A stretch of 64,000 bases of DNA from Escherichia coli O127:H6 str. E2348/69 (GTDB lineage Bacteria; Pseudomonadota; Gammaproteobacteria; Enterobacterales; Enterobacteriaceae), in assembly GCF_000026545.1 (NCBI RefSeq), contig NC_011601.1; one strand, given 5' to 3'. Of the stretch, positions 58,078 to 58,356 are shown piece by piece. Below the pieces are notes generated by a model. The model saw only the letters and a program-made list of their open reading frames with translations. It was not told where the DNA came from and did not search any database. Both the position numbers and the translations under genes were made by a program. Each line of letters opens with the position of its first letter. Position 1 is the stretch's first letter.

Positions 58078-58356
58078 ATGTCGAAAGTCTGCATAATTGC
58101 CTGGGTTTACGGGCGAGTTCAGGGCGTAGGATTCCGCTACACCACGCAGTACGAAGCGAAAAAACTGGGACTAACCGGGTACGCCAAAAATCTTGACGAT
58201 GGCAGCGTGGAAGTGGTTGCCTGCGGTGACGAAGAGCAGGTGGAAAAATTAATGCAGTGGTTAAAAAGTGGCGGCCCGCGTTCAGCGCGTGTGGAACGGG
58301 TGCTTAGCGAGCCGCATCATCCCTCCGGGGAGTTAACGGATTTTCGTATTCGTTAA
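58078..58356 (+). CDS. yccX: Acylphosphatase YccX (92 aa)
   Basis: ORF-track entry starts at 57865; ATG at 58078 preceded by AAGGAG gives [24 protein letters not shown] (acylphosphatase signature). Confidence 0.85.

Follow-up and report, generated by a model that had tools for sequence, protein, structure and literature searches.

The convergent genes yccX and tusE of Escherichia coli E2348/69 end tail to tail on a single shared tetranucleotide, TTAA (58353–58356, read directly from the sequence), which carries the stop codons of both. Positions are those of the window, by which we mean the whole 64,000-nucleotide stretch that was analysed (960001–1024000 of NZ_LT827011.1), unless they are given as K-12 coordinates. 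Over the 901 bp that surround the junction (57900–58800), the window is identical to E. coli O127:H6 strain E2348/69. The overlap is real, ancient and ordinary, it belongs to the commonest kind of convergent overlap and it has been catalogued previously; we hold it to be highly probable that the pair represents an ordinary, anciently fixed, minimal tail-to-tail overlap, with mRNAs overlapping at their 3′-ends as an unavoidable consequence. A YTAR tetranucleotide (here TTAA) holds the yccX stop on one strand and the tusE stop on the other: since there is no DNA between yccX and tusE, the 3′-end of each mRNA comes to lie inside the coding sequence of the partner. In K-12, and presumably also in E2348/69, the tusE mRNA ends 86–93 nt inside yccX, shortly downstream of a local hairpin; yccX transcription would run on through tusE in the antisense direction and could be halted there by one of several hairpins with U-rich tails. 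The complementary 3′-regions would then pair in vivo and be cleaved by RNase III, again as judged from K-12 and carried over to E2348/69; mutual dampening in the manner of excludon-like interference, if there is any, would be a by-product and is probably small.

Gene structure and the shared stop codons

The plus-strand gene yccX (58078–58356) encodes an acylphosphatase of 92 amino acids and ends in TAA at 58354–58356, whilst the minus-strand gene tusE (58353–58682) encodes a DsrC-family sulfur-relay protein of 109 amino acids and ends in TAA as the complement of 58353–58355; both coding sequences are found in the list of open reading frames as well as in the annotation. The initial annotation had described a convergent stop-codon overlap of 4 bp at 58353–58356, and both the coordinates and the length agree with the sequence and the open reading frames. 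Its further statement that the yccX stop lies within the last codons of tusE gives the right coordinates and the right 4-bp figure, with a wording that is slightly loose: the yccX stop has two bases in common with the tusE stop and only one with the last tusE sense codon (ATT, Ile109; complement of 58356–58358), and the tusE stop has one base in common with CGT, the last codon of yccX. An identical 4-bp overlap is present in the RefSeq/PGAP annotation of both E2348/69 and K-12 MG1655 (yccX 1030064–1030342, tusE 1030339–1030668), with an offset of 971986 between K-12 and window coordinates.

That one of the stops or reading frames has been miscalled, and that the genes do not truly overlap, is scarcely conceivable. 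YccX matches the Pfam family Acylphosphatase (PF00708) over residues 8–91 of 92 (E 1.3e-27) and is matched over its full length (1–92) by the 92-residue chain of PDB 2gv1; TusE matches DsrC (PF04358) over residues 4–109 of 109 (E 7.5e-45), with the DsrC structure alignments reaching its last residue. Taken together, Pfam families and solved structures account for the two proteins to the last residue, the stops keep their place in 78 of 80 species (see below) and stop codons, unlike starts, allow no choice of position. Miscalled yccX or tusE stops, in favour of which nothing was seen, were rejected on this Pfam, structural and conservation evidence, and what is found is a 4-bp convergent overlapping gene pair in the full sense: two genuine genes on opposite strands, a legal tetramer and inheritance of the arrangement in orthologues.

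Minimal convergent overlaps and their occurrence in the window

Enumeration reveals that a convergent overlap of 4 nt is permitted only as CTAA, CTAG, TTAA or TTAG and that the three stop codons rule out overlaps of 1, 2, 3 or 5 nt. The description of yccX/tusE as a minimal example, made at the outset, is thus literally true, as no overlap of 1–3 nt can exist. The same four tetramers were given by Lillo & Krakauer (2007, PMC2174442), who identified 4 bp as the modal length of convergent overlaps: across 58 species they counted 1890 such overlaps, 1218 of them at least 5 nt long, which by subtraction leaves approximately 36% with a length of 4 nt. Their count for E. coli was 58 convergent overlaps, whilst a later count arrives at 75. 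The same authors noted that the terminators of overlapping convergent genes necessarily lie within the coding sequence of the partner (PMC2174442).

Within the window, 4 of the 10 convergent pairs (6958–58682) overlap in their coding sequences, by 24, 4, 38 and 4 bp. The initial annotation had likened yccX/tusE to sxy/yccS and ycbJ/elyC, and this comparison is borne out by the annotated overlaps of 38 bp for sxy/yccS and 24 bp for ycbJ/elyC. The second 4-bp case, absent from that annotation, is zapC (34112–34654, plus strand) and ycbX (34651–35760, minus strand), which share CTAA at 34651–34654. As a side observation, 4 of 10 in the window is well above the approximately 1 of 10 expected genome-wide from the 58–75 E. 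coli overlaps, in what is a post hoc and informal comparison.

Conservation of the overlap

The arrangement was followed through a TusE scan of a one-genome-per-species collection, in which the best 80 of 463 relatives, each a different Enterobacteriaceae species, were retained. Among these best 80 of 463, yccX is convergent to tusE at every one of the 80 loci and the overlap measures exactly 4 bp in 78 species. The tetramer is TTAA in 48 of the 78 overlapped species, TTAG in 11, CTAA in a further 11 and CTAG in 8, a variety that arises from the last TusE codon (ATT or ATC) and from the stops TAA and TAG; TGA, which does not permit an overlap of 4 bp, was not found as the stop of either gene in the 78 overlapped pairs. 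The TusE C-terminus reads KPVKCI in 77 of the 78, with KCI present in all. The YccX C-terminus is variable and ends in F(G/S/D)IRY in most genera and in DFRIR in Escherichia (E. coli, E. albertii). In the latter, a deletion of 3 nt has dropped the terminal Tyr codon from YccX and left the tetramer intact (58345–58356 of the window, compared with loci L005–L084 at the tusE stop). The exceptions to the 4-bp overlap are two species only, Cedecea colo and Entomohabitans teleogrylli (loci L062 and L060, 2816–2845 in both): in Cedecea colo a 7-bp tandem duplication (GTATTTA) has opened a gap of 3 nt between the genes, and in Entomohabitans teleogrylli an insertion of 4 nt leaves the genes abutting, with TGA as the yccX stop.

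Loss of its stop would lengthen YccX by 26 codons and TusE by 11. A constrained TusE end of the form ATY-TAR would automatically supply a TAA or TAG stop in the yccX frame on the opposite strand, and the overlap would persist because both stops sit in sequence that is, as we infer, under purifying selection. Judged from these sequences, purifying selection acting at the ends of the two proteins would suffice to freeze the overlap, and selection for the overlap itself would be dispensable. Retention in 78 of 80 species could also be due to selection for the overlap as such, and from these data the two kinds of selection, on the overlap and on the protein ends, cannot be told apart. In the sense of being inherited (78 of 80), the overlap is more than a matter of chance, and the constrained C-terminal codons of one gene apparently keep the stop of the other in position. 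No earlier report of such stability for yccX/tusE was found in the literature searched; what the present analysis adds, modestly, is how deep the conservation goes: 78 of 80 species, which between them use each of the four permitted tetramers.

The 3′-end of the tusE mRNA

All transcript data used here derive from K-12 rather than from the window strain E2348/69. The K-12 Term-seq data of Adams et al. (2021, PMC7815308, supplementary file 1) contain a minus-strand 3′-end at 1030253, classified as antisense to yccX, and a second sheet of the same file, for a growth condition, places it at 1030252 (PMC7815308); these positions are 86–87 nt beyond the tusE stop, within yccX. The independent TRS data (PMC10687069) give a primary tusE terminus at 1030252/1030247 and a 3′UTR of 93 nt. 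Transferred by the offset, the end falls at approximately 58267 in E2348/69, and the tusE 3′UTR would occupy 58267–58352 on the minus strand, the whole of it antisense to the final ~87 nt of yccX. This agrees with the initial proposal that the genes have no separate terminators between them, given that the tusE 3′-end lies 86–93 nt inside yccX in both Term-seq and TRS.

When the window and K-12 sequences are folded as RNA, a hairpin forms in this 3′UTR (58271–58315, minus strand) with a 9-bp stem, GCGGCUCGC/GCGGGCCGC, that is followed by CACUUUUUAACC. The stem is identical in E2348/69 and K-12 and the tail differs by a single base (CACUUUUUAACC in E2348/69, CACUCUUUAACC in K-12); in K-12, the mapped tusE 3′-end is 4 nt downstream of the stem. 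Such an end fits exonuclease trimming back to the hairpin as well as it fits termination there. Conservation of the stem beyond that of the coding sequence was not detected, with 68.4% of cells being paired as compared to 67.9% in shuffles, and RNAalifold of 81 sequences returned no consensus structure downstream of tusE on the tusE-sense strand (-0.45 kcal/mol). As regards Rho dependence, the bicyclomycin table of the Term-seq study (PMC7815308) holds no bicyclomycin-sensitive region at this locus. At the other end of the gene, the terminator scan identified an intrinsic terminator of yccA just upstream of tusE (58730–58752, minus strand), which separates tusE from the yccA transcript; the primary K-12 yccA 3′-end in Term-seq is 1030711/1030710 (PMC7815308).

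Transcription beyond the yccX stop codon

For yccX, neither the K-12 Term-seq (PMC7815308) nor the TRS data (PMC10687069) list a plus-strand 3′-end between 1030300 and 1030700. Folding of the plus strand reveals a stable hairpin that begins 11 nt after the yccX stop, inside TusE codons (58367–58409), and has a weak U tail (ACCUUUC); the fold around it reaches -44.2 kcal/mol over 121 nt, with z = -4.5. It is retained in the 81-sequence consensus with nearly all of its pairs invariant and only one that covaries. A second hairpin (58417–58448) is followed by UUUUUCUU, the whole spanning 58417–58456, and is a candidate intrinsic terminator for yccX some 60–100 nt into tusE; its pairs and its T-rich tail are invariant in the 81 sequences. 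In both hairpins the pairs are invariant because conserved TusE residues are encoded there. Further downstream, 245 nt past the yccX stop, the terminator scan and folding identify a terminator-like structure in tusE codons 18–28 (58600–58631, plus strand), consisting of a perfect GC-rich hairpin of 8 bp and a T-rich tail: all 8 pairs are present only in the window strain; a further E. coli and E. albertii have 7 of 8, other genomes mostly 3–6 of 8.

A conserved terminator for either yccX or tusE was considered and rejected, as covariation, shuffles and consensus folds gave no evidence of selection on RNA structure. At the yccX/tusE junction itself the consensus terminator scan detected no terminator-like site. 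Neither is the junction a bidirectional intrinsic terminator: it has no intergenic DNA, and the hairpins are one-directional and lie inside coding sequence.

Further elements were observed around the two genes. On the plus strand, a sigma-70-like promoter match, TTGGCT-17-CATAAT (57958–57986), points towards yccX and overlaps the start codon of rlmI (57983); on this consensus match only, the yccX promoter may overlap the start of the divergent rlmI gene. A sigma-S SELEX peak has also been published for a position within rlmI, between hspQ and yccX. Between yccA and the gene for tRNA-Ser (serT) there is a symmetric hairpin of 11 bp (59605–59631) that is terminator-like on both strands and is presumably the serT terminator.

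Overlapping transcripts and alternative explanations

Evidence that the two transcripts meet is provided by a p19 study of K-12 (PMC7373196, Table S1c, wild type), in which strand-specific RNA-seq is reported as RPM per gene. In these data yccX has 19.0 RPM sense and 13.6 RPM antisense and tusE (there yccK) has 40.3 and 15.2 RPM, with neighbouring genes at 365 and 4.5 RPM (yccA), 36 and 0.67 RPM (yccU) and 60.7 and 3.5 RPM (rlmI) in the same order; the antisense/sense ratio is thus 0.72 for yccX and 0.38 for tusE, compared to 0.01–0.06 for the neighbouring genes. The strand column of this table contradicts the annotation for several genes (for instance, yccX is given as '-' and yccK as '+'), and the sense and antisense columns are sensible, so that the discrepancy concerns only those who reuse the table. 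From the same study, p19 captured a perfectly paired RNA duplex of 21 bp with 2-nt overhangs (PMC7373196, Table S3), the halves of which are assigned to yccX and lie at 1029516–1029537 (133 reads, 1.52 RPM) and 1029514–1029535 (121 reads, 1.38 RPM) of U00096.2, corresponding to about 58305–58328 on both strands of the window (offset 971209). Flanked by the tusE stop on one side and the mapped 3′-end of tusE on the other, the duplex is only just above the 1-RPM cut-off of the table: at 1.4–1.5 RPM against that cut-off, it points weakly to RNase III cutting a pair formed by the yccX mRNA and the tusE 3′UTR. ExcludonFinder (2025, PMC12288877) includes yccX-tusE amongst 165 convergent excludons of MG1655, together with zapC-ycbX, sxy-yccS and ycbJ-elyC, a listing that denotes overlap in at least 50% of 58 MG1655 transcriptomes. 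Furthermore, a review (PMC7154689) places yccX/tusE amongst the tail-to-tail pairs of the RyhB MAPS top list and remarks that overlapping mRNAs may copurify indirectly. The initial inference that the transcripts read into each other is therefore upheld by the antisense RNA-seq over both genes, the p19 duplex and the ExcludonFinder listing. Mapped 3′-ends had been named as the means of deciding the matter: the K-12 tusE end inside yccX favours read-through, and the yccX half is judged from the antisense counts.

Two of the properties of a convergent excludon are hence seen for this pair, transcript overlap in the published K-12 data and RNase III-processed double-stranded RNA in the form of one p19 duplex at 1.4–1.5 RPM with a cut-off of 1 RPM. 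It could be argued from this that the overlap has been kept as a functional convergent excludon, in which polymerase interference and RNase III cleavage of the duplex would let the more strongly transcribed gene repress its partner and the expression of the acylphosphatase would be inversely coupled to the sulfur relay for tRNA 2-thiouridine; we consider this unlikely. The place of yccX-tusE in the MG1655 excludome is a point in its favour, although the transcript overlap on which that place depends is automatically satisfied by any expressed pair with overlapping coding sequences, and the RNase III-type duplex lies inside the overlap, but at the detection threshold. The high antisense signal on both genes and the naming of the pair in the RyhB MAPS list also agree with a functional excludon; against it, rnc mutants have fewer, not more, sense reads for both genes (unreplicated RPM values, PMC7373196), the hairpins on both 3′-sides show no covariation beyond coding constraint, and the literature searched contained no opposing expression, rnc-dependent change or phenotype for yccX/tusE. 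Retention of the arrangement in 78 of 80 species would likewise speak for such a function, were it not accounted for by the constraint on both protein ends. The stronger claim, that near-universal retention reflects selection for an obligatory 3′-overlap and that the acylphosphatase and the TusE relay form a conserved excludon repressing each other via RNase III, we find distinctly improbable; if it were true, the RyhB MAPS copurification would hint at iron limitation as one of the conditions under which it acts.

Two further explanations concern the manner in which transcription ends at this locus. In the model that Wang et al. (bioRxiv 10.1101/2022.10.23.513370) describe after Ju et al. 2019, overlapping bidirectional termination between convergent pairs is driven by collision: converging polymerases pause at a boundary hairpin and collide, trailing polymerases release them, and both 3′-ends are thereby set with no canonical terminator or Rho, the hairpin being needed. 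The very stable hairpin 11 nt beyond the junction (58367–58409, z = -4.5) would suit this model for yccX/tusE, and so would a tusE end that lacks a canonical U-tract position and the bicyclomycin table with no Rho region at the locus; the mapped tusE 3′-end, however, follows a different hairpin, 40–85 nt across the junction, and a yccX 3′-end is absent from the Term-seq and TRS lists. As described there, the model also works best for highly expressed pairs, whereas yccX and tusE are weak (19 and 40 RPM). Collision-driven termination at yccX/tusE is possible but not indicated, and we rate it as quite unlikely. The remaining explanation, a noncontiguous operon in which tusE would be co-transcribed with rlmI (and hspQ) across yccX antisense, thereby embedding and controlling yccX, is very improbable indeed. 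The minus-strand order of yccA, terminator, tusE, antisense yccX, rlmI and hspQ would allow it and antisense reads do cover yccX, but their density is approximately what is expected from a 90-nt 3′UTR at the level of tusE (arithmetic on the RPM values of PMC7373196). The pair is also absent from the three noncontiguous operons reported for MG1655 (ExcludonFinder, PMC12288877). The discrete and strong tusE 3′-end some 90 nt into yccX, found in two data sets, argues against bulk read-through and makes a tusE-rlmI operon unlikely.

Comparison with known systems

Considered as an ordinary minimal overlap, yccX/tusE is of little importance beyond correct bookkeeping. It does illustrate the four-base minimum, the placing of 3′-ends in the coding sequence of the partner and the low-level double-stranded RNA that results. 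Were the overlap regulatory, for which there is no indication here, the excludon idea could be put to the test on a conserved pair that is easy to engineer. The excludon concept itself reportedly goes back to Sesto et al. in 2013. With convergent excludons yccX/tusE shares the adjacent position of two genes on opposite strands, transcripts that overlap at their 3′-ends, and double-stranded RNA or RNase III products; however, convergent excludons are defined by mutually exclusive expression, and for yccX/tusE only transcript overlap and the duplex are seen. In addition, the overlap of yccX/tusE takes in coding sequence and is not confined to long UTRs, and opposing functions are not known for this pair. 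When compared to the bidirectional intrinsic and collision-type terminators of convergent E. coli genes (Ju et al. 2019, according to bioRxiv 10.1101/2022.10.23.513370), convergent transcripts that overlap at their 3′-ends and a hairpin near each 3′-end are held in common; unlike bidirectional terminators, yccX/tusE lacks both a stretch of DNA between the genes and one common hairpin with an A tract and a U tract on either side.

The pairs zapC/ycbX, sxy/yccS and ycbJ/elyC resemble yccX/tusE in being convergent coding overlaps, all of which are listed as convergent excludons by ExcludonFinder; zapC/ycbX differs from it in the tetramer, CTAA in place of TTAA, and sxy/yccS and ycbJ/elyC differ in that their overlaps of 24–38 bp run through a number of sense codons of each gene and thus encode part of both proteins. 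With the 4-bp convergent pairs catalogued in PMC2174442 the arrangement is the same and there is no difference in kind: what sets yccX/tusE apart from them is its unusual stability, in 78 of 80 Enterobacteriaceae species.
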